Both the position numbers and the translations under genes were made by a program. The notes below the pieces were generated by a model that saw only the letters and a list, made by a program, of their open reading frames with translations, ran no database searches and had not been told where the DNA came from. Below, piece after piece: positions 27,063 to 45,672 of a DNA stretch of 64,000 nucleotides. This DNA comes from Sulfurospirillum sp. (GTDB taxonomy: Bacteria; Campylobacterota; Campylobacteria; Campylobacterales; Sulfurospirillaceae). Numbering within the stretch: the first letter of the stretch is position 1; every line of letters begins with the position of its first letter. The stretch is taken from positions 1 to 64,000 of the forward strand of contig JASFYR010000022.1 of the NCBI GenBank assembly GCA_045047115.1, in the 5' to 3' direction.

Positions 27063-27251
27063 TTAAAATTCAAATCCACCGCTTTGTCCTTTGGACATAC
27101 TTTTATAAACGGCATCTATATACTCTTTTCTGATTTTACAATCAAACAGTTTTTCGCAGTTAAAACAACTCTTAAAATTCAAGTTCTTTTGACACGCTTT
27201 TAGTTTTTTTGTGGCATCTGTCAGATTTTGTTTGTACTTGTCTTCATTCAT
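27063..27251 (-). CDS. Small four-cysteine hypothetical protein
   Basis: Coupled to fbp; C-x8-CxxC-x5-C; ends GGFEF. Confidence 0.7.
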   Translation of the reverse strand: MNEDKYKQNLTDATKKLKACQKNLNFKSCFNCEKLFDCKIRKEYIDAVYKSMSKGQSGGFEF

Positions 27252-28080
27252 TGTGTTTCAAAACCAACTCTATCTCTTTTTTTGAGCCAAAATAACAAGG
27301 TGTTGTATCATGTGGATGAGTTGGAGTCAAATCCAATAATCTTCTTCTCCCGTCTATCGCCTCTCCACCTGCTTTTTCAAATATAAATGCAAAAGGAAAT
27401 ACTTCAAAAACCATTCTTAATTTCCCTTTGGGGTGGTCCGTTGTGCCAGGATATGAAAAAAGCCCCCCGCCTTTTAGAAGTATTTGATGAAGATCAGGAA
27501 CCATACCACCTGAATACCTCAGTCTGTGACCTCTTGAGTAAATCTCTTCAACTAGCTCTACATGTGATTTTGACCAGTTGCAGTGAGTTGCACCTGTAGC
27601 ATTTATGTGCCCCTCATTGTCTAGTTCCAAACTTTTCATAAATACAAAATCACCATTATCGTTAAGCCTGTACATACCGACATCTTCATAGGCTGTAATC
27701 ATCTGTGTAGTGGGACCGTATATAACATATACAGCAGCCACCATATCTTTTCCATCGTAGCCGTTTTTATATATGCCAAAGATTGAGCCCACACTAAAGT
27801 TTACATTTAACAGGCTTGATCCGTCGAGCGGATCATAACCTACCATGTATTTGCCATTGTTATATATGGGAGTTTTTTCCTCTTTTTCTTCGCTGATTAT
27901 CTCTCTTACGCTACTGATTTTTCTAAACTCTTCTTCGATAACCAAATCACTTTTGATGTCTAGCTTTAACTGTACATCGCCTGTGGCATTGATATTTTGT
28001 GAATATTCGGAATCATCATCTTCTATGAGCTTTTTGATTCTGATGGCTGATTTTTTTATAGCATCAAAAATTTCTACCAT
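27244..28080 (-). CDS. fbp: Class I fructose-1,6-bisphosphatase, short Campylobacterota type
   Basis: GDVQLKLD, SEE, DPLDGSS, RYSGGMVPD, KLR..FE. Confidence 0.93.
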   Translation of the reverse strand: MVEIFDAIKKSAIRIKKLIEDDDSEYSQNINATGDVQLKLDIKSDLVIEEEFRKISSVREIISEEKEEKTPIYNNGKYMVGYDPLDGSSLLNVNFSVGSIFGIYKNGYDGKDMVAAVYVIYGPTTQMITAYEDVGMYRLNDNGDFVFMKSLELDNEGHINATGATHCNWSKSHVELVEEIYSRGHRLRYSGGMVPDLHQILLKGGGLFSYPGTTDHPKGKLRMVFEVFPFAFIFEKAGGEAIDGRRRLLDLTPTHPHDTTPCYFGSKKEIELVLKHNE

Positions 28081-28755: not shown

Positions 28756-29262
28756 ATGGAGATTGAAGTGAAGTATATCGTTTTAACAGTTTTACTCTTT
28801 TTTACATCGTGCTCTTATAAACACGATAGCCTATATATCAGCAGTAAAAAAACTACCGAACAGAGTGTTGCAAATACTAAAAAAACCCAAATCCTCAAAA
28901 ATGGTAAAGTTAAAATTTTTGTAACAGTTACATATCTAAATTCACTCAAAAACCAAAAAATTATAGACAAGAAAAAAGAGCAGTTTATAGTGGGTTTTTA
29001 TTTTGTAAATTTTGGCACAAAAGAGATAAATAAAGTCTTGAACCTAAAAGATGTTAAATTTAGCATAGAAGATGAAACGCATCTAATCAGCGTAAAAAAA
29101 CTAAAACCAAGTAGTCCGATTTTACAGATAATTCCTGCATCAAATCCCTGGAGCCAGTACTTCTTAGTGCAGACTCCAAAGATATCCAAAAACAGTATAA
29201 CTTTTTCTCTAAAAGTAGATTCCTATAAAAAAGCTGTACTGAAGTTTGAAAAAAATTATTAA
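28756..29262 (+). CDS. Hypothetical lipoprotein (start may be GTG 28768)
   Basis: Hydrophobic leader ending FTSC lipobox. Confidence 0.7.
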   Translation: MEIEVKYIVLTVLLFFTSCSYKHDSLYISSKKTTEQSVANTKKTQILKNGKVKIFVTVTYLNSLKNQKIIDKKKEQFIVGFYFVNFGTKEINKVLNLKDVKFSIEDETHLISVKKLKPSSPILQIIPASNPWSQYFLVQTPKISKNSITFSLKVDSYKKAVLKFEKNY

Positions 29263-30278
29263 ACCTCTTTTAGGAACTTCACAGCCTCCAAAACAGTCTT
29301 TTTGTTGCCTATGACAAGAGGTGTTCTTTGATGTATGGAAGTTGGTTGAATATCCAGTATGTTTTCGCCTTCGTCATTCATCGCCAGCCCTCCTGCTTGT
29401 TCGGCTAAAAATGCCAGGGGTGCCGCTTCATACAAAAGTCTTAGTTTTCCACTTTTTTTGTTTGGATCTTTTTTGTCTTTTGGATATAAAAATATACCCC
29501 CGCTTATAAGGTTTCTGTGGAAATCAGCAACCAAAGAGCCGATGTATCTTGAGGAAATTTCGCTATCTTTTATATGATTTATGTACTTTTGCATATTTTC
29601 ATCCCAATACCTGCAGTTTCCCTCGTTTACGCTTAGATATTTACATTTTTTTGGGATTTTTATATCTTTGTGTGAAAGATAAAATTCACCCACACTGGGA
29701 TCTAGCGTAAAGCCGTTTACTCCATGTCCGGTTGTAAAAACCATCATAGTGCTTGAGCCATAGAGGATATATCCTGCTGCTACCTGTTTGCTTCCTTTTT
29801 GCAGAAAATCATCCGCAGTTCCGGGAACATCATAAGAAGATGTATCCCAGCTTGAAGTTACGCGTCTGTGTATGGAAAAAATTGTTCCTATGCTGACATT
29901 GACATCTATATTTGATGAGCCGTCAAGTGGATCAAAAGCAAGAGTGTATTTTCCGCTGTAACCCTCTTTTACAGGGATTACCTTCTCTTCCTCTTCTGAG
30001 ACCATCGCACAGACATAGCTACAGCTCTCCATTCGCTTTTTGATTGTATTATTTGTCAGTTCATCCAGATTTTGAACTTCTTCGCCCTGGATATTTTTTT
30101 TACCTGATTGTCCCAGTATATCTGCAAGTCCTGCCTTGTTGACTTCGGCATTTATAGTTTTTGCAGCGACTATAAGCTCATTTAAGAGTCCTGTTAGATC
30201 TCCTTTTGCTTCAGGAAACATATGTTGTAAATCCATAATGTATCTACTAACAGTGATACCTAGGGGTTTGTCTATCAT
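29259..30278 (-). CDS. fbp: Second class I fructose-1,6-bisphosphatase, long canonical type (start moved to ATG 30278 after AGGAG)
   Basis: N-terminal helices, NIQGEEVQNLD, SEE, FDPLDGSSN, RYIGSLVAD, KLRLLYE. Confidence 0.93.
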   Translation of the reverse strand: MIDKPLGITVSRYIMDLQHMFPEAKGDLTGLLNELIVAAKTINAEVNKAGLADILGQSGKKNIQGEEVQNLDELTNNTIKKRMESCSYVCAMVSEEEEKVIPVKEGYSGKYTLAFDPLDGSSNIDVNVSIGTIFSIHRRVTSSWDTSSYDVPGTADDFLQKGSKQVAAGYILYGSSTMMVFTTGHGVNGFTLDPSVGEFYLSHKDIKIPKKCKYLSVNEGNCRYWDENMQKYINHIKDSEISSRYIGSLVADFHRNLISGGIFLYPKDKKDPNKKSGKLRLLYEAAPLAFLAEQAGGLAMNDEGENILDIQPTSIHQRTPLVIGNKKTVLEAVKFLKEV

Positions 30279-30322
30279 CTCATCACTCCTTTGGTCTATT
30301 TGTGGCAAATGATACCATAAGC

Positions 30323-35923: not shown

Positions 35924-36574
35924 ATGTTGGAAAAACTACTAGATTCTCCGCTGTTTAACTCATTGCCTATGGAGTTAATAAAAGAGATTTCACTATTTTG
36001 TAAAATAAAAAAATTTGCAAAAAATGAAGTTCTTTTTTATGAGAATGATGAAGTTGATACAATTTATTACATCCTTAAAGGGTCTGTTAAATTTTATAAG
36101 GTTGACAGATTTGACAATGAGATATTTTTATATAAGCTCTCAAAAAATTCTCTCATTTTTGATCTCTCCAAATTGTGTGAGGAATTTATACTACAGTGTT
36201 TTGCAAATGCTGAATTTATAGAAGAGAGTGAGATTTTGGCAATAGATGCAAAAAAGTTTAAAATCTTGATGAAAGAGAATCAAAAACTGATGCAAAGAAT
36301 TATGAGGGAATCGTTTTTGATGATTCAGCAGATGCAGTGTATTATAAGCAGAGACATAGTCTTTGACGGAACCGCAAAAGTTGCTCATATGATAGACAAT
36401 GATTTGAAAGATTTTAATATGCTAAAAAAACACGAGATAGCATATATGTTGCATATGCAACCAGAAACGCTTTCACGGATTTTGAAAAAACTGACAAGAA
36501 ATAGCATCATTAAGATAGAAAACAATCAAGTGATTGTTCAGGATAAAAAAGAGTTAAAGGATATATATGATTAA
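35924..36574 (+). CDS. Crp/Fnr-family transcription factor (Nss/DNR-like; no N-terminal FNR Cys cluster)
   Basis: cNMP-like domain (LFYE.D...YYILKGSVK) and HTH with QPETLSR. Confidence 0.9.
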   Translation: MLEKLLDSPLFNSLPMELIKEISLFCKIKKFAKNEVLFYENDEVDTIYYILKGSVKFYKVDRFDNEIFLYKLSKNSLIFDLSKLCEEFILQCFANAEFIEESEILAIDAKKFKILMKENQKLMQRIMRESFLMIQQMQCIISRDIVFDGTAKVAHMIDNDLKDFNMLKKHEIAYMLHMQPETLSRILKKLTRNSIIKIENNQVIVQDKKELKDIYD

Positions 36575-37937
36575 GCCATCAGGAATCAACAATAAACTTA
36601 AATTGGTGGGAGGCTCACTTACTTTTGTTGTGATTGCAACTATTATGATTTCATTATATATGAATATTAAAACCAAAAAAGATGCCCTCATAATAAATAT
36701 AGCCGGAAAGCAGAGAATGCTTACGCAAAAGATCAGTAAAGAGATATTTTATAATATACTCAAGTACTCTACAGATTTCAGGATAGTTGACAGTGCTATG
36801 AGTACATTTGAAAACAACCTTTATGATCTTATAAACGGAAATAGTGCAAGAGGTATATATCCACCACAGGACAAGAAGATCACAGAAAAGCTAAAGCAGG
36901 TTCAAAAGATGTGGATACCGTTCAAATTACATGTGCAGGAGTTGGAAAAAAACCTTGAAAAGATAAGCCCCAGCTTAGAGGTTTTTACGATTAAGATCAA
37001 TAAAATTTTAAGTCTCTCTGACAACATAGTTAAAACGATGGTGAAAAACAATATGAAAGGAGTTTATATAGATCTCTCAGGCAGACAGAGAATGCTCTCT
37101 CAAAGAATGGGGTTGTTCCTCAAGAGATATCTCAGAACTTCAAACAGAGAAGACTATACCATATATCTAAATGCCAAAGATTTATATAACACTACGATTA
37201 TAAATTTTTTAAATAACGAAAAGATAAAAGATAATAAAGAGGTCTATGTGGCATGTAAAATCACTTATGATTATTGGAAAAATTTTCAAAAATATGCAAA
37301 TGAACTCATAAGTGAGCAGACAAATATAAATAAACTCACCAAATACATATATAAAAATAATGTTATAGTACTTAAAAATATGGATGAAGCCGTATGGCTC
37401 TTCACAGACTACAGTGAACAGAAAAATATGCTTTTTGTCTATATGCAGTTTACGCTGTTGAGTCTAGGTGTTATTATCATTTTATACAGCTTTTTACTTA
37501 CAAAAGAGATTATGAATCATGTAAGGGATTTTATAGACAAGGCAAAAATGTTAGCTCTATCAGATATAACCCAAATAAATACGAAAAATTTTAAACTGGC
37601 AGAGGCAAACGAAGATGAACTCAAAGAAGCTTCAGGACATATAAATTCATTTGTACAAAAAGTAAACAATGCCCTAAATCACTCTCAAGATGCTATAGAC
37701 AAGGCTGAAAGAGCCGTTGAAGAGTTGGAGAGTATCTCAGGCGATGCAAATGAGGCATTATCTTCGTTGCAACTGAATGATGCAGATAAAAAAGGTTTTG
37801 ATAAAAAGATAAGTGCCACAGAAGATATAGCTATAGAATCTACTGAAAATCTTCTTCACGTTGCCAAGATGCTTGAAAAATTAAAATCAAATCTGAGTTC
37901 AATATCCCAGATTCAACAAGGGGAAGAAAAAAAGTGA
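36567..37937 (+). CDS. Membrane sensor with two PilJ/NarX-like periplasmic domains, no recognisable kinase or MCP output
   Basis: TM - INIAGKQRMLTQK - IDLSGRQRMLSQR - TM - helical tail; overlaps the Crp/Fnr stop. Confidence 0.8.
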   Translation: MIKPSGINNKLKLVGGSLTFVVIATIMISLYMNIKTKKDALIINIAGKQRMLTQKISKEIFYNILKYSTDFRIVDSAMSTFENNLYDLINGNSARGIYPPQDKKITEKLKQVQKMWIPFKLHVQELEKNLEKISPSLEVFTIKINKILSLSDNIVKTMVKNNMKGVYIDLSGRQRMLSQRMGLFLKRYLRTSNREDYTIYLNAKDLYNTTIINFLNNEKIKDNKEVYVACKITYDYWKNFQKYANELISEQTNINKLTKYIYKNNVIVLKNMDEAVWLFTDYSEQKNMLFVYMQFTLLSLGVIIILYSFLLTKEIMNHVRDFIDKAKMLALSDITQINTKNFKLAEANEDELKEASGHINSFVQKVNNALNHSQDAIDKAERAVEELESISGDANEALSSLQLNDADKKGFDKKISATEDIAIESTENLLHVAKMLEKLKSNLSSISQIQQGEEKK

Positions 37938-37941
37938 TAAT

Positions 37942-37955
37942 TTGACTTAAGTCAT
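37942..37955 (+). promoter_or_regulatory. Crp/Fnr-type box TTGAC-TTAA-GTCAT upstream of napA
   Basis: Perfect inner palindrome TGACTTAAGTCA; 7 of 8 matches to TTGA-N6-TCAA; centred about 42 nt before the predicted TSS. Confidence 0.75.
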
Positions 37956-37975: not shown

Positions 37976-37984
37976 TGATACTAT
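37976..37984 (+). promoter_or_regulatory. Extended -10 (TGATACTAT) of the nap promoter
   Basis: TGn plus TACTAT; RBS AGGAGG at 38007-38012. Confidence 0.55.
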
Positions 37985-38017
37985 TAAAACGATGAAAAAT
38001 TTCAATAGGAGGTAAGA

Positions 38018-40864
38018 ATGTCGCTTTCAAGAAGAGACTTTTTAAAGTCAACTGCTGCTGCTAGTGCAGCTGCCGCTGTAGGAATCTCTATCCCTGATGA
38101 TGTGCAGGCTGCTGCTGCTGCAACACAGGATAAATGGAGATGGGATAAGGCAGCCTGTCGTTTTTGTGGAACAGGTTGTGGAATTATGTTAGCCACCAAG
38201 GGCGAAGGAATAAACAGAAGGATTGTTGCGGTCAAAGGTGACCCGGCAGCCCCGGTAAATCGAGGACTTAATTGTATTAAAGGTTATTTTAATGCCAAGA
38301 TTATGTATGGTGCCGATAGATTAACAACACCACTTCTCAGGATGAATGACAAGGGTGAATTTGATAAACACGGTAAATTTGCACCGGTTAGTTGGAAAAG
38401 AGCATTTGATGAGATGGAAAAACATATCAAGTATGCCCTCAAAAAGAATGGTCCTGAAGCAGTAGCTGTTTTTGGTAGTGGTCAGTACACTATCACAGAG
38501 GGCTATGCAGCTCAAAAGATGATGAAAGGCGGTTTTAGGAGTAACGCCATAGATCCAAATGCAAGACACTGTATGGCCAGTGCAGTTGTTGGTTTTTATC
38601 AAACTTTCGGTATAGATGAGCCAAGCGGATGTTACGACGATATCGAGTTAACTGATACTATTATCGCCTGGGGATCAAACATGGCAGAGATGCACCCAAT
38701 TCTTTGGTCAAGATGTACAGATAGAAAACTAAGCGATCCAAATCGTGTAAAAGTTGTCAGTATTCAAACATATACCAATAGAACTTGCGATTTGGCTGAC
38801 GATACTATCATCTTTAGACCGCAAACAGATCTGCTTTTGTGGAACTATGTAGCTAGAGAGATAGTATATAACCATCCTGAAGCAATTGATTGGGATTTTA
38901 TAAAAAAACACATAGTTTTCACAGCAGGACCTGTAAATATCGGTTATGGTATGAGAAGAAAAGGTGAACCGTCTTTGACTCCTGTTAGAGCCAATGGAAG
39001 TGCCGGAAGATATGATGCAAAAGAGATGCAGACAATCAATAAAGAGATGAGTAAAAAAGTGGGCTCAAGAGAAGCTCCTGCACTTGCGCCTTATGGTTAT
39101 AGTGAAAACGAAGTGATGAAAAACACTGCCGGCACTCTAAAGCATTGGCATATTAGCTTTGAAGAGTATAAAAAATCACTAGAGCCTTATACACTTGATT
39201 ATGTAGCAAAAGTTTCAAAGGGTGATCCTGATGAGCCACTGGATGCATATAAAGCAAAATTAAAAAGATTAGCCGATCACTATATAGAAAAAGGAAGAAA
39301 AGTAGTAAGTTTCTGGACAATGGGTATGAATCAACACACTCGTGGTAGCTGGGTAAATACTCTATCTTATAATGTTCACTTTTTATTAAATAAACAGGCA
39401 AAACCAGGTAACGGTGCTTACTCACTAACAGGGCAACCAAGTGCATGCGGAACCGCTAGAGAAGTCGGAACATTCTGCCATAGACTGCCGGCTGATATGA
39501 TGGTAAAAAATCCAAAACACAGAAAGATAACAGAAAAAGGTTGGCATATACCAAATGGTACTCTAAATCCAGTCGGTAACCAACATATTATGAAAATTCA
39601 CAGAGACATAGAGGATAGATTTGTTAAGTTTGCATGGGTAAATGTATGTAATGCTTATCAAGACAGTGCAAGCGCAAAACACTGGCTAAAAGCAGCAAGA
39701 GAGATAGAGGATCTATTCTTGGTTACAAGTGACGGATACCCTGGAATCTCTGCTATGGTTTCTGACCTCGTGCTTCCAAGTGCCATGATTTATGAAAAAT
39801 GGGGAGCTTATGGAAATGCCGAGAGAAGAAGTCAATGGTGGAGACAACAAGTCTTGCCAGTCGGTGATGCTATGAGTGATACATGGCAGTGGGTAGAGCT
39901 TTCAAAAAGATTTACAGTTGATGATCTATGGGGATCATATACTCTAAGAAACGGTAAAAAGCTAGCCGATGTCAGGGGAGATGCAAGATCTATGGGCTAC
40001 AGAGGTGATACAACCATGTTTGATATCCTCTTTGCAAATAACAGAGCAAAATCTTTCAAAGCCGATCGTGTAAACGACCCAATCCAAAGAGGCTATGACG
40101 ACTCTGAGGTATTTGGCGATGAGAGAAATGTAGTTGGAAGTGACGGAAAAGTCTTTAAAGGTTACGGTTTCTTTTTGCATAAATATCTATGGGAAGAGTA
40201 TGCAGACTTTGGTAGAGGACACGGACACGATTTAGCTCCTTTTGATGTCTATCATAGGGTTAGAGGTTTGAGATGGCCTGTTGTAAACGGGAAAGAGACT
40301 CTATGGAGATTTAATGGAGAGTATGATCCTTATGTTAAACATTTTGCAGGTCCAAATGCAGACTTTGCATTTTATGGTCCGATAGCAAAAAATCTACTTC
40401 AAGGAGATTTGAAAGGACCAGATAAGGCACTTGGTAAAAAAGCACTCAAAAATAAAGCGAAAATTTTTGCTCGCCCATATATGGATCCACCAGAAATGCC
40501 AGATAACGAGTATGATACATGGTTGTGTACAGGTAGGGTACTTGAACATTGGCACAGCGGGACTATGACTATGAGAGTGCCTGAACTTTTCCGTGCCGTT
40601 CCTGAAGCTCTATGCTTTATGAACCCAAAAACTGCGCAAGAGAAAGGTCTAAAAAGAGGTGATTTGGCTTGGATTGAAAGCAGAAGAGGAAAAGTAAGAG
40701 CAAGAATTGAGACAAGAGGAAGAAACAGACCTCCGAGAGGATTGGTATTTGTTCCTTGGTTTGATGAAAAGATTTTGATAAACAAAGTCTGCCTAGATGC
40801 TACTTGTCCTATGTCAAAGCAGACAGATTATAAAAAATGTGCCGTTAAGATATATAAAGTATAA
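38018..40864 (+). CDS. napA: Periplasmic nitrate reductase catalytic subunit
   Basis: Tat motif [15 protein letters not shown]...[13 protein letters not shown] (Mo-ligating Cys), [22 protein letters not shown]. Confidence 0.98.
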
Positions 40865-40875
40865 AAGGGTAAATT

Positions 40876-41754
40876 TTGAATCACAAACAGAAGGTTAAGT
40901 CATATAAACAACCACTAAGTGAAAGTAGAAGAGGATTTTTGGGAACGACCAGAAATATTGGTCTTGCAATCTTGGGTGGTCTTACTTGGAGTGCTTATGT
41001 AGATGAGGCAAAGGCAAATAAACTTTTGCTTCGTCCTCCCGGAGCTCTCAAGGAAGATGATTTTCTAAAAACTTGTATAAAATGCGGTCTGTGTGTGGAT
41101 GCATGTCGAAACAGAAATGGTAATATCATCTTTGATAAAAACGGCAAGAGAGTTGGCGCAAAAGATCCTACCCTAAGGCTTGCAGCTCCGGGAGACAATA
41201 AGCCTCTTGGAACTCCGTTTTTTATTGCAAGAGAAGATCCTTGTTTTATGTGTGATGATATACCTTGTGTTCCTGCTTGTCCTAGTGGAGCTCTTGATAT
41301 ATTGAGCCTTACAAACAAGAAGACAAAAAAGCTAGACATAAATATGGCAAGAATGGGTCTTGCCGTTGTCCACAAAGAGAGCTGTATAGCGTATTGGGGA
41401 CTTCAATGCGATGCATGTTATAGAGCATGTCCTCTTATGGGAAAAGCTTTAACTATAGATATGCAGATGAACAAAAGAACAGGAAAACATGCATTTTTGC
41501 TTCCGGTTGTTCATAGTGATATCTGTACTGGTTGTGGACTTTGCGAAAAAGCTTGCGTTGTTGAAAAAGCTGCCATTTTTGTTCTTCCTCGCGAGCTTGC
41601 GATGGGAGAAGTCGGTACCCACTATGTAAAAGGCTGGGATAGAAAAGATCAACAAAGAGTTGGAGCTGCCAAATCTATACATACCAAAGATAAAAGAAGC
41701 GAAAGAAAAGCGATAGATAAACTAAACGACTTGGGAGGACTGTTAGATGAGTAG
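40876..41754 (+). CDS. napG: Ferredoxin-type protein NapG
   Basis: SRRGFL, LRPPGA, multiple CxxC 4Fe-4S motifs. Confidence 0.93.
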   Translation: MNHKQKVKSYKQPLSESRRGFLGTTRNIGLAILGGLTWSAYVDEAKANKLLLRPPGALKEDDFLKTCIKCGLCVDACRNRNGNIIFDKNGKRVGAKDPTLRLAAPGDNKPLGTPFFIAREDPCFMCDDIPCVPACPSGALDILSLTNKKTKKLDINMARMGLAVVHKESCIAYWGLQCDACYRACPLMGKALTIDMQMNKRTGKHAFLLPVVHSDICTGCGLCEKACVVEKAAIFVLPRELAMGEVGTHYVKGWDRKDQQRVGAAKSIHTKDKRSERKAIDKLNDLGGLLDE

Positions 41755-42580
41755 TATAAGATTTCTAATAACAAGAAGAGTTGTTCAGATAACTATTCTT
41801 TTGCTTTACTTTGGCGGTAATTACTATGGATGGAAGATGTTAAGTGGAGATCTCAGTTCATCATCTATACTGGGAATAATACCTCTTAGTGATCCTTATG
41901 CTGTACTTCAAATGTTTGTTGCGGGTGCTGTTATATCATCAAATATTCTCATAGGAGCTGTGATTATTTTCCTCTTTTATGCGATTTTGGGTGGTAGAGC
42001 TTTTTGTTCGTGGGTTTGTCCTGTCAATATCATAACTGACGCAGCAAATTGGACAAGCAGAAAGTTTGGTTTTGATATGGTTGCCAAAAAGCAACCATCA
42101 AGCAGAAATTTGAGATATTGGGTTTTAGTTATAAGCTTAATTATCTCATTTTTTCTAGGCCTTACAGCATTTGAGTTTATTTCACCTATATCTATGATAC
42201 ACAGAGGTATCATATTTGGTATGGGATTTGGTTGGGCAGCTATGGCGATACTGTATCTGTTTGATCTTTTCGTGCTCAAAAATGGTTGGTGTGGACATAT
42301 CTGCCCACTCGGAGGTTTTTATTCTATAATAGGAAGATTTAGACTGCTAAAGGTAAAACATGACAGCGAGGCATGTACGGGATGTATGAAATGCAAAGTT
42401 GTATGCCCTGAAGTCCAAGTTTTACATATGATAGACAAAGTTTCTATTCCTGTGACCTCAGGAGAATGTACAAATTGTGGCAGATGCATAGATGTTTGTG
42501 AAGATAATGCCCTCGGGTTCTTTTTGAAAGTAGAAAATAATAATAAAAAAGGAGAGATAAATAATGAAAAAAATGAGTAA
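41747..42580 (+). CDS. napH: Quinol dehydrogenase membrane subunit NapH
   Basis: RAFCSWVCP, WCGHICP, two CxxCxxCxxxC motifs. Confidence 0.95.
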   Translation: MSSIRFLITRRVVQITILLLYFGGNYYGWKMLSGDLSSSSILGIIPLSDPYAVLQMFVAGAVISSNILIGAVIIFLFYAILGGRAFCSWVCPVNIITDAANWTSRKFGFDMVAKKQPSSRNLRYWVLVISLIISFFLGLTAFEFISPISMIHRGIIFGMGFGWAAMAILYLFDLFVLKNGWCGHICPLGGFYSIIGRFRLLKVKHDSEACTGCMKCKVVCPEVQVLHMIDKVSIPVTSGECTNCGRCIDVCEDNALGFFLKVENNNKKGEINNEKNE

Positions 42581-43187
42581 AATCGCTCTTAGTATCATAA
42601 CTGTTGGAATTTTTGTAGCGGGTTGTGCCACTACAAATGAATCAGTTAGTGATAACTCTTTGAGTCTAAGAAAAGCCAATGTGCAAAGTGAAAGTACTAT
42701 AAAATTAAATAAAGTAAATTACACCAATGCAACACCGGGTGAAGCAAAGAAGATTGAAAGATCATATGACAATGCTCCTCCTCTCATTCCTCATAGTGTT
42801 GAAGGTTTACTTCCTATTACTAGAGCTAACAACTCTTGTTTGGGATGTCATATGCCCGAAGTTGCGTCAAGTGTTCACGCAACAGCTATACCAAAATCAC
42901 ACTTTATAAACTTTAGACCGACTGAGATTATCGCAAAGAATGGTAAACTTATCAAAAAAGGTGATATTGTAGCTAGACCAAACGGTGGAGCAAATGATGT
43001 TTTTGCAACATCAACACATGGGAAACTATATGCAGGAAGATTTAACTGTACGCAATGCCATGTACCACAATCAAATGCAAAACCTTTGGTTGGTAACACT
43101 TTCAAACCAGATTATATGAACAAGAAACAGATGAATCAATCAAATTTTGTAAATACATATGATCAGGGAATAAATACCGTAAAATGA
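42564..43187 (+). CDS. napB: Diheme cytochrome c NapB
   Basis: APPLIPH, CLGCH, CTQCH; leader ends VAGC. Confidence 0.93.
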   Translation: MKKMSKIALSIITVGIFVAGCATTNESVSDNSLSLRKANVQSESTIKLNKVNYTNATPGEAKKIERSYDNAPPLIPHSVEGLLPITRANNSCLGCHMPEVASSVHATAIPKSHFINFRPTEIIAKNGKLIKKGDIVARPNGGANDVFATSTHGKLYAGRFNCTQCHVPQSNAKPLVGNTFKPDYMNKKQMNQSNFVNTYDQGINTVK

Positions 43188-43678
43188 TACAAAAACGAGA
43201 GCTTTTCGGCTCTCTTGTGTCATCTTTTAAAAGAGGAGGTCAAAAGAGTGAGACTATCATCCGACCTCCCTATTTTAGCGATGTTGAGAGTTTTTTAGAA
43301 AATTGCATAGAGTGTAATGGAGTTTGTGAAAACTTTTGTCAAGAAAAAATAATAGTTATAAAAGAGGATAAAACACCTGTTCTGGATTTTTCAAAAGGTG
43401 GCTGTACATACTGTGATGAGTGTGCAAAAGCTTGTGAATTTGGTGTATTGGATATAAAAAACAAAAGAAGCATTAAAGCAAAAATTACGATAAATGTGTT
43501 AGAATGTTTAAGTTGGGACAAGACGATGTGTTTTAGTTGTAAAGATGTCTGCATGGAAGATGCCATAGTGTATCTTGGACTCTTTAGACCTGAGATAGAT
43601 ATGGACATTTGTACAAATTGCGGTTTTTGCGTAAATGTCTGTCCTACCCAAGCAATTAAGGTAAAAAAATGGCAGTAA
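43184..43678 (+). CDS. napF: Ferredoxin-type protein NapF
   Basis: IRPPY, four Cys clusters; nap order. Confidence 0.88.
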   Translation: MIQKRELFGSLVSSFKRGGQKSETIIRPPYFSDVESFLENCIECNGVCENFCQEKIIVIKEDKTPVLDFSKGGCTYCDECAKACEFGVLDIKNKRSIKAKITINVLECLSWDKTMCFSCKDVCMEDAIVYLGLFRPEIDMDICTNCGFCVNVCPTQAIKVKKWQ

Positions 43679-43947
43679 AATTTGTATCAACTATCAAAGA
43701 AGATGGTATAGGCGGATGGTATATAGAGCTTGCAGACACTCTTGATAACAGAGTTGCAACTTGCAAAGATATGAAACAGTATGAAGATGCAATAGAGCAG
43801 ATGGGCGATGATTATGGTGGAGATATAGAGGTTGAGTGGAAAAAAGATGATAATGTTACCATAGCTCATTTTGAAGAGGTTAAGATAGAGATAGCAAAAT
43901 TTCAACAACAGTATAACCAAGAGGCTATACGTGGAGTTAAGACATGA
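43669..43947 (+). CDS. Small acidic hypothetical protein inside the nap operon
   Basis: Overlaps both napF and napL; 92 aa, D/E-rich. Confidence 0.75.
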   Translation: MAVKFVSTIKEDGIGGWYIELADTLDNRVATCKDMKQYEDAIEQMGDDYGGDIEVEWKKDDNVTIAHFEEVKIEIAKFQQQYNQEAIRGVKT

Positions 43948-44894
43948 AAAAGATTCTACTCATCTTAACTATATTGGTGATACAACTTTTTGCCAGAGAG
44001 ATAAACTCCTTGTATACGATAAAAACAGATGGAGAGATTTTAGGTGTTTTGGTACAAGATGACAAGATATATGCCTCCACTGATAGTGGCACTGTAGATA
44101 TATTTGATATAGAAAAAAAAGAGCTTATAAGAGTTATCAAATTTGATAAGATAAAAGATTTTTTTGGAGATGTGAGTGATGCGAGAGTTTTCTCTATAGA
44201 CAAGGAGGGGGGTAAGCTGCTTTTTGTATCGCAGGGAGAGGGAGGCTTTAGCAGAGTCTATCTATATCAGGGAAAAAAAAAGAGTTTGATATTTAACAAG
44301 AGAGATAAGCTCTCTGTTGTTAAAGCAAAGTTTATCTCAAAAGATAAAATTATCCTGGCACTGCTTAGCTCACAAGTGCTTTTATATAATCTTAAAAGTA
44401 AAAAATTTATTTACAATAAGCAGGTCTCTGGTTCAAAATTTTCAGACTTTGCACTTAACAGGGATAGAAGTAAAATGGCATTGGTGGATGAGAGCGGAAG
44501 TGCAACATTGATAGATACAAAAGATGGAAAAGTTATCAAAGTCTTTAAGGGGGAAAATCTTGACAATGTATATCAAGTAGATTATAAAAATCATATAATT
44601 GCCATAGCTAGCAAAGACAGAAGATGTGGAGTATATAGAGACGATGGAACTCTCTCGTATTATAAAAAAGCTGAGTTTATGGTATATAGTGTAGGTCTCA
44701 GTCCGGATGGCAAGATGTGTGCTTATCCAAGTGATTTTGTAAATAGTATAACAATTTTTGATACAAGTAACAAAGAGAATGTCTATAAACTAGTTGGTGA
44801 TAAGAGTACGATTTCAAATATTATCTTTACTGGCGACAAGACTCTTTTTACAACAAGTAAAAATAAGATAAAATTTTGGAGGTTAAAAAAATAG
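43944..44894 (+). CDS. napL: Periplasmic WD40-like beta-propeller NapL
   Basis: Signal peptide, WD-like repeats, position before napD. Confidence 0.8.
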   Translation: MKKILLILTILVIQLFAREINSLYTIKTDGEILGVLVQDDKIYASTDSGTVDIFDIEKKELIRVIKFDKIKDFFGDVSDARVFSIDKEGGKLLFVSQGEGGFSRVYLYQGKKKSLIFNKRDKLSVVKAKFISKDKIILALLSSQVLLYNLKSKKFIYNKQVSGSKFSDFALNRDRSKMALVDESGSATLIDTKDGKVIKVFKGENLDNVYQVDYKNHIIAIASKDRRCGVYRDDGTLSYYKKAEFMVYSVGLSPDGKMCAYPSDFVNSITIFDTSNKENVYKLVGDKSTISNIIFTGDKTLFTTSKNKIKFWRLKK

Positions 44895-45278
44895 ATGAAT
44901 ATTTCAAGTATAGTAGTTCAGACACTACCAAAGTATTTAGAGGGTGTTGTAGAGGAATTGAAGAGTTGTGGAGCTTGTGATTACCATTTTCATGATGAGA
45001 GCGGAAAGATTATCATAACAATCGAGGGAGAAGATGTCTCTGAAGAGTTGCAAAAACTAAAAGTCATAGAGGCAATACCGCATGTAATTGCCGCTGATAT
45101 GCAGATGAGTTACAGTGAAGATGAGCTTGACCGCCATATGAGAGTTCTGGAAAATGCAGATGCAGTTCCAAAGGTCCTTGACCAAGATACTACAAAGATA
45201 GATCCTGCTACAGTTGTATACAATGGAGATTTGAGAAAAAAAGATATATATGAATTTGCTGAAAAAACTAAAGTATAG
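44895..45278 (+). CDS. napD: NapA chaperone NapD
   Basis: MNISSIVV, GKIIITIEG. Confidence 0.9.
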   Translation: MNISSIVVQTLPKYLEGVVEELKSCGACDYHFHDESGKIIITIEGEDVSEELQKLKVIEAIPHVIAADMQMSYSEDELDRHMRVLENADAVPKVLDQDTTKIDPATVVYNGDLRKKDIYEFAEKTKV

Positions 45279-45303: not shown

Positions 45304-45672
45304 ATGAAAATAGAGAAAATTATAAAAGGTAAAAATCTAAAACTTACTCCTGCAAGAGTTGAGATTTTAGAGATACTTATAGAGCAAAATAAGCCCATCT
45401 CTTATGATGACATAAAAGATGGGCTATCCATGGACAAGGCTACTTTTTATCGGAATATTTCTAAATTTGAGGATAATTCTATCATTAGAAGTTTTGAATC
45501 AAATGATAAAAAGAGATACTTTTCCCTTGAGCAAAATTTTCATCCACACTTTATCTGCACAAGATGCAATACAATTTCATGTCTTAGCGAGAAAAATTTG
45601 ATAAATTTACAAGGTTATAAAATTGAGAGTATTATCATAAAGGGCCTGTGTCCAGCCTGTCTAAGTACCTAG
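45304..45672 (+). CDS. Fur-family transcriptional regulator
   Basis: LKLTPAR..IL, ATFYR, HPHFICTRC, GLCPAC. Confidence 0.88.
   Translation: MKIEKIIKGKNLKLTPARVEILEILIEQNKPISYDDIKDGLSMDKATFYRNISKFEDNSIIRSFESNDKKRYFSLEQNFHPHFICTRCNTISCLSEKNLINLQGYKIESIIIKGLCPACLST

Follow-up and report, generated by a model that had tools for sequence, protein, structure and literature searches.

How do Campylobacterota sense the nitrate that induces their nap genes? The phylum is described as devoid of FNR and NarP orthologues in the accessible text of one paper (PMC6682613), and in Wolinella nitrate induction is mediated by NssA, the sensing route being left open in the portions available of two accounts (PMC8139620, PMC6682613). 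The first of these, a 2021 review, calls that route unknown in its available sections, which also report induction by nitrate and not by nitrite (PMC8139620); Wolinella NssB and NssC act on these genes as well. The window analysed here, a 64,000-nt stretch of Sulfurospirillum sp. DNA, holds a crp/fnr gene and a gene for a membrane sensor directly before napA. We consider it very probable that sensor and regulator constitute a functional unit, and somewhat favour the reading that a chemoreceptor-derived nitrate receptor controls an NssA-type regulator by direct contact, likely holding it until nitrate binds.

The crp/fnr gene (35924-36574) encodes 216 aa with Pfam matches to cNMP_binding (5.9e-12) and HTH_Crp_2 (3e-9). 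The gene for the 456-aa sensor (36567-37937) starts within it, overlapping its stop by 8 nt (ATGATTAA), and 4 nt past the sensor stop lies the box TTGACTTAAGTCAT (37942-37955), before napA (38018). The original prediction had described this order of crp, 8-nt overlap, 456-aa membrane protein, Crp/Fnr-type palindrome and napA, and all its coordinates were correct. Among the nap genes NapD was assigned by Pfam; for the others we assume the order napAGHBFLD, together with visible motifs. The source genome is 100% complete, the sensor is its sole PilJ protein, and named relatives in the tree place it near the Sulfurospirillaceae. The features are as follows.

35924..36574, + strand: Crp/Fnr regulator, 216 aa, sensor-coupled clade, probable NssA orthologue (Pfam, alignment, score gap, tree)
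36464..36478, + strand: recognition helix E181-T-L-S-R185 of the regulator (sequence; T182, L183, S184 and R185 invariant in 49/49)
36567..37937, + strand: double-PilJ membrane sensor, 456 aa (ORF, Pfam, alignment, AlphaFold2, hydropathy)
36597..36662, + strand: predicted TM helix 1, about residues 11-32 (hydropathy)
36693..36728, + strand: N-box 1, residues 43-54, with Arg50 (exact match to the McpN pattern; aligned to McpN 6GCV)
37068..37103, + strand: N-box 2, residues 168-179, with Arg175 (one mismatch to the McpN pattern)
37428..37499, + strand: predicted TM helix 2, about residues 288-311 (hydropathy, with a hydrophobic stretch at about 287-316; alignment)
37500..37664, + strand: divergent HAMP, residues 312-366 (profile against the MCPs of this genome, E 6e-10; Atlas lead)
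37665..37916, + strand: MCP N-terminal arm, ending before the MCP tip (AlphaFold2, colinearity with MCPs)
37821..37847, + strand: motif E419-D-x-x-I423-x-S-x-E427, candidate partner-binding face (tail alignments)
37942..37955, no strand assigned: Nss/Fnr-type box TTGAC-TTAA-GTCAT (sequence, shuffle test)
37976..37984, + strand: predicted extended -10, TGaTACTAT, with a start near 37991 (sequence)
38018..45278, + strand: nap operon, from napA (38018-40864) to napD (44895-45278)

Three further observations concern the window. A 92-aa ORF (43669-43947) with no Pfam match occurs within the nap operon, the napF-like gene on one side and the napL-like gene on the other, a Fur-family regulator gene (45304-45672) begins 25 nt past napD, and two genes that read as fructose-1,6-bisphosphatase-like (27244-28080 and 29259-30308) lie within 3 kb.

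Sensor matches were found in 86 of 301 genomes of the phylum, the weak ones being largely MCP-sized proteins. In a set of 50 sensor loci (the best 30 plus 20 chosen from the 150 matches listed) every sensor gene is immediately preceded by crp (50/50, the window and 49 others), one of these crp genes being in two pieces. Among 80 named loci, 25 have the tail motif and 23 of these have crp, while the other two begin at a contig edge; two more are cut before the tail, both with crp. In the remaining 53 PilJ loci of the 80, no crp stands adjacent in the same orientation. Some named loci duplicate the first set, leaving 74 distinct pairs. The reverse test gave the same picture. A Crp profile returned 66 matches of at least 205 bits, then a gap to 56 matches of at most 181 bits; 65 of the 66 are adjacent to a sensor, and although 49 of the 66 had built the profile, 16 of the other 17 are sensor-adjacent as well (11 by coordinates, 5 by DNA). 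No sensor was adjacent to the lower-tier Crp in the 14 loci examined of the 56. Within the coupled clade of a FastTree phylogeny, two Crp proteins have no adjacent sensor, those of L131 and L149, the latter a lower-tier match. In L131 (G011:C19:57500-64500) the coupled-clade Crp gene stands directly before napA with the box present, and the G011 genome, 100% complete, holds no sensor or tail match.

The original prediction proposed, as a check, to look for the pair beside nap across Campylobacterota. The pairing recurred at every one of the 50 loci, but it is not specific to nap: the pair also occurs before nosZ, a nor-type gene or unrelated genes, and stays together away from nap. The sensor takes three forms, with a double PilJ (about 450 aa), a single PilJ (about 330 aa) or a degenerate motif. 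The seven sensors of the last kind form one clade and so do their Crp proteins, which argues that the pair was duplicated as a unit. This sister class (L044-L046, L050, L132, L135 and L136; 314-330 aa, with motifs such as INEQKAFTQ and its own Crp clade) stands directly before a nosZ-like gene in 6/7 cases, clade II NosZ being confirmed for L050. Two loci carry a crp gene in two pieces beside an intact sensor (L019:2826-3487 and L071:5344-5999), either a real frameshift or an assembly error. Five Sulfurovum loci (L084, L089, L094, L104 and L111) encode PilJ-like proteins (about 260-280 aa) that stand alone and lack the tail, arranged in tandem with 3 to 5 to an array.

The regulator is neither a typical Fnr nor a typical CRP. 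It scores 30 bits against NCBIfam Fnr (cut-off 228) and 47 bits against CRP (cut-off 266), and neither the N-terminal Cys cluster that marks FNR nor the cAMP motif that marks CRP is visible in its alignment. The recognition helix is what we take to be the FNR-type ExxSR motif. Coupled (n=74) and uncoupled (n=17) Crp proteins differ at Q179 (100% vs 0%), R192 (97% vs 6%), F147 (89% vs 6%), R143 (81% vs 6%) and N165 (100% vs 24%). Where the coupled proteins mostly have C[FY][AS]N, 12 of 14 lower-tier ones have [YF]P[AS]; a YPA motif is, we assume, linked to NO-sensing DNR proteins. The regulator is probably an orthologue of Wolinella NssA, judged indirectly from a published comparison for N. labii, whose nap-linked Crp is 44.8% identical to NssA, against 29% and 26%, in the available part of that paper (PMC11539149).

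Concerning the cytoplasmic tail of the sensor, the original prediction saw no kinase, GGDEF or MCP signalling part, and this holds: none of 32 sensor orthologues matched kinase, GGDEF or MCPsignal families in Pfam, and none had a DHp with conserved His or a HATPase domain, the sensor itself ending at residue 456. An alignment of 78 tails has no conserved His column, and the source genome yielded no HisKA_3 kinase match. What had been overlooked is the MCP ancestry of the tail, with its HAMP and N-terminal arm. The divergent HAMP lies below the detection of Pfam in the 32 orthologues; the sensor profile aligns to the MCPs of the source genome through TM2, HAMP and the next helix (E 6e-10). In AlphaFold2 monomer models the tail helix breaks at residues 401-404 and folds back as a hairpin (hairpin pLDDT about 70-85).

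Searching with the tail profile in HMMER yielded 232 matches. The best 150 comprised 112 tipless proteins (counted as 50%-clusters, with a strong last-helix score and an end at most 28 residues past that helix), 22 full MCPs, none reaching 60 bits, and 16 fragments or weak matches. Colinearity of the 22 MCPs extends over the entire tail, with equivalents of E351 and E419 in 22/22, of I423 in 18 and of E427 in 20, figures that are enriched because these MCPs were chosen by the tail profile. The spacing from E351 to E419 is 72 in the MCPs, and in the sensors 68 (42/78), 64 (29/78) or 51-66 (7/78), which amounts to deletions of 4 to 21 residues at the predicted turn that put the sensors out of register with MCPs. 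The sensors end 30-45 residues past E419, before the signalling tip, in 76 of 78 proteins, and the MCP tip motif occurs in none of 80 tail-positive proteins. Judged by this colinearity, the fixed early end and the predicted hairpin, the sensor descends from a chemoreceptor whose tip and return arm disappeared long ago. A truncated MCP with full-length orthologues had been named beforehand as an outcome that would speak against the proposed system; the tail is indeed an MCP cut short in its ancestry, but the orthologues are cut short too, hence the truncation is old and fixed.

Two other assignments within the tail were rejected. The last helix is not the MCP C-terminal helix, as it has no fixed position in 27 MCPs, and a colinear N-arm origin accounts for it instead. 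Nor does the ED motif qualify as a methylation site, for it falls at heptad positions e/f, whereas canonical sites lie at b/c. Fold searches with the tail model returned generic antiparallel coiled coils only (best Z 11.3; none at Foldseek E 0.001), a PDB profile search with the tail gave unspecific matches, and a profile comparison of tail and Crp found nothing. A word search for longer fused forms, which is weak evidence, gave none at E 0.1 among 45 candidates.

The candidate contact face lies near the end of the tail. E419 and I423 are invariant both in 49 tails selected without the motif and in 78 selected with it, and by heptad register E419, D420, I423 and E427 lie off the hydrophobic core. 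The same motif, E-E/D-x-A-I-x-S/T-x-E, is also conserved in the 22 full-length MCPs, and none of 10 MCP loci examined (3 with the motif) has a crp neighbour; Crp binding is therefore not required to explain why it is kept. The acidic N-arm motif is accompanied by a basic C-arm motif in the MCP relatives; the basic motif is absent from the sensor, a loss that may leave its acidic face free for another partner. Distance correlations give the contact mixed support. Over 67 pairs, Crp distances correlate more closely with those of the hairpin (r 0.80) than with those of HAMP (0.59) or the N-terminal 135 residues (0.67), but in 28 nap-linked pairs, which as kin are not independent, the correlation with the tail (0.874) is no better than that with the N-terminus (0.872). 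All told, we predict with reasonable, if not strong, confidence that tail and regulator touch directly.

The receptor might instead signal to the regulator through a third protein, such as a chemoreceptor, kinase, protease or small PAS protein. Such a route is suggested by the surface motif that the tail shares with full-length MCPs, by a PAS-only gene just upstream of crp in a few loci (L005, L039 and L134) and by a NIT-domain hybrid kinase in the source genome that offers another way in. We nevertheless regard it as rather unlikely, as no conserved third gene stands beside the pair in the loci examined, the regulator matches no receiver family and the tail has no conserved His column. The hybrid kinase itself (G000:C13:36757-39912) has a periplasmic NIT domain (PF08376, E 2e-26), its kinase and receiver parts being assigned from motifs, and is a possible second nitrate/nitrite input.

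Since the entire cytoplasmic part derives from an MCP, the lone N-terminal arm could also join chemoreceptor arrays in trans and serve taxis, with the regulator merely co-transcribed and sensing something else. Full-length double-PilJ MCPs do exist (L075, 27% over 288 aa), and some relatives are named MCPs by JGI. This reading is improbable in the light of the 80 tail-positive proteins without a tip, the lack of a signalling fragment nearby and the deletions at the predicted turn, which disrupt the MCP register; the strict tie to one Crp clade would also be unexpected for a taxis accessory.

The periplasmic part points to the ligand. PilJ (PF13675) covers two stretches of the sensor (E 5.1e-25) and was found by Pfam in 32/32 orthologues. 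The N-box pattern [IVL]-[ND]-x-A-G-x-Q-R-M-L-[ST]-Q was taken from the accessible text on McpN, in which the N-box Arg binds nitrate on the dimer axis (PMC6381276). The two periplasmic nitrate-type motifs originally noted are both there: motif 1, INIAGKQRMLTQ (residues 43-54), matches exactly, and motif 2, IDLSGRQRMLSQ (residues 168-179), has one mismatch (S in place of A) and retains G-x-x-R. In the AlphaFold2 model (mean pLDDT 81) the periplasmic region matches P. aeruginosa PilJ (E 5e-7), McpS and McpN. That PilJ is the closest fold counts against nitrate binding, as it binds no nitrate, though it is also without an N-box, according to the available text (PMC6381276). We are nevertheless highly confident that the periplasmic part would bind nitrate.

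It is quite improbable that the ligand is not, or not only, nitrate, the sensor responding to nitrite or another anion, or that the sensor is a general nitrogen-oxide chassis with clade-specific ligands. NarX/NarQ-type sites do take nitrite too in the portion of the McpN paper available (PMC6381276), seven relatives have the degenerate motif, six of them before a nosZ-like gene, and some intact-motif sensors stand before nosZ or a nor-type gene; against this, motif 1 of the present sensor is an exact N-box, and Wolinella responds to nitrate rather than nitrite in the accessible review text (PMC8139620). A decayed chemoreceptor pseudogene or chance neighbour, as the truncated MCP tail might suggest, is highly improbable and is contradicted by conservation, with the cut fixed in all close relatives, the end point 30-45 residues after E419 kept in 76/78, 112 tipless 50%-clusters among the best 150 of 232 matches and the protein detected in N. 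labii in the available data (PMC11539149).

At the napA end, shuffling the 260 nt before the gene gave an equally good site in 1 of 200 shuffles. A box centre near -42 is class II activator geometry, and a start near 37991, 49 nt from the first box base, would put the centre at -42.5. A 49-nt box-to-start spacing is likewise given for N. labii napA in the accessible part of that study (PMC11539149). A generic promoter scan gave 18 sites vs 10.9 expected, none of them at the predicted -10. The napA box has at most one mismatch to TTGAC-N4-GTCAA in 32 of 34 sensor loci and two in the other two; it is still present in 4/5 genomes with the pair unlinked from nap and in 3/4 sensor-free napA loci. 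Nor is it exclusive to the pair, since napA next to an uncoupled crp (L142 and L143) has it as well. Other Nss proteins share the box, which counts against the main reading. In the source genome 59 sites of the TTGAC-N4-GTCAA type occur, 11 of them outside long ORFs and several at nitrogen-oxide genes. In one region (G000:C10:110550-129960) a PAS-only gene stands upstream of an uncoupled crp, and two boxes are perfect, one at 114566 ahead of a nirS-like gene and one at 127657 ahead of a two-gene unit resembling a heme-copper oxidase-family enzyme, both judged by sequence reading.

Published expression data count partly against this reading: N. labii (PMC11539149) and formate-grown S. multivorans (PMC4585668) express nap constitutively, in part or entirely, although the latter source also gives 3- to over 50-fold more NapAB with nitrate. 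Twenty-one unique peptides identified a 443-aa PilJ-N protein of N. labii whose accession adjoins that of NapA (PMC11539149).

In the direct-contact reading, nitrate would bind between the N-boxes at the dimer axis via Arg50, perhaps also Arg175, and the signal would run through TM2 and HAMP, the way it does in NarQ or McpN, and reach the hairpin. The regulator would be bound at the E419/D420/I423/E427 face of the tail, and the hairpin would release (or activate) it once nitrate is bound. The freed regulator would then bind the box at about -42, recruit RNA polymerase and activate the napA promoter. As to the sign of control, we lean towards sequestration over direct activation, because genes that overlap or abut would fit a 1:1 ratio of the two proteins and because G011 keeps regulator, box and napA without the sensor, a state more easily explained by the loss of an inhibitor, albeit in one case. 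Nitrate induction through the pair would likely be independent of phosphorylation.

Comparison with known systems sets the pair apart. Like McpN (PA2788, PDB 6GCV), the sensor has an N-box PilJ domain, two TM helices, HAMP and the start of the MCP helical arm; unlike McpN, it has two PilJ modules, no signalling tip, no C-terminal arm and a partner transcription factor gene. It shares with NarX/NarQ-NarL/NarP the G-x-x-R nitrate motif, the TM-HAMP arrangement and a presumed control of nap by periplasmic nitrate, but has no DHp, conserved His or HATPase, and is paired with a Crp/Fnr protein instead of a regulator with a receiver domain. The regulator resembles Wolinella succinogenes NssA (and NssB, NssC and Campylobacter NssR) in its Crp/Fnr family, TTGA-N6-TCAA-type box and nap target, and differs in having a sensor partner, none being named for NssA in the accessible accounts. 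The tail is close to an MCP subfamily (e.g. P0153 and P0170; EExAIxTxE in the N-arm, IAxRTK in the C-arm), colinear in HAMP and N-arm and with the E419 equivalent in 22/22, but full-length with a tip, bearing other sensor domains (dCache, 4HB) and without a crp neighbour in 10 MCP loci examined. The acidic N-arm motif (EExAxxTxE/Q) and the basic C-arm motif (IAxRTK) are found in P0153, P0170, L161, L162 and L165, and in the last three a receiver-like gene directly follows the MCP gene. Transcription factors are sequestered at the membrane by transporters in PtsG-Mlc and MalK-MalT; the proposed logic is similar, whereas a dedicated chemoreceptor-derived receptor and a Crp/Fnr partner would be involved here. 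Thermus DrpA/DrpB with DnrT is another case in which nitrate is proposed to control a CRP-like activator without phosphorylation, but DrpA/DrpB are unrelated DUF2249/DUF1858 proteins without nitrate motif or TM helices, in the text available (PMC6282519).

Our literature search, with subscription papers mostly outside its range, found no paper describing the pair; Kern and Simon 2016 may mention the gene. The pair is conserved and apparently undescribed, with known parts in a proposed new wiring, and the present analysis contributes a reciprocal test of the pairing, a geometry for the promoter and the derivation of the tail, over its full length, from an MCP. Candidate residues are Arg50, Arg175, E419, D420, I423 and E427 in the sensor and R143, F147, N165, Q179 and R192 in the regulator. 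We give an even chance to the view that the orphaned N-terminal arm of a tipless chemoreceptor was rewired to bind a Crp/Fnr factor, which would constitute a distinct two-protein class of transmembrane signalling. On the same, equally balanced reading, Campylobacterota would reuse this module with one, two or degenerate PilJ domains to place nap, nor and nos under the influence of nitrate and perhaps of cues related to N2O. For these bacteria the pair supplies a candidate receptor for the missing nitrate-sensing step of nap induction, and the sister class at nosZ bears on the control of N2O reduction. If the contact is real, a chemoreceptor has here been turned into a transcriptional receptor.
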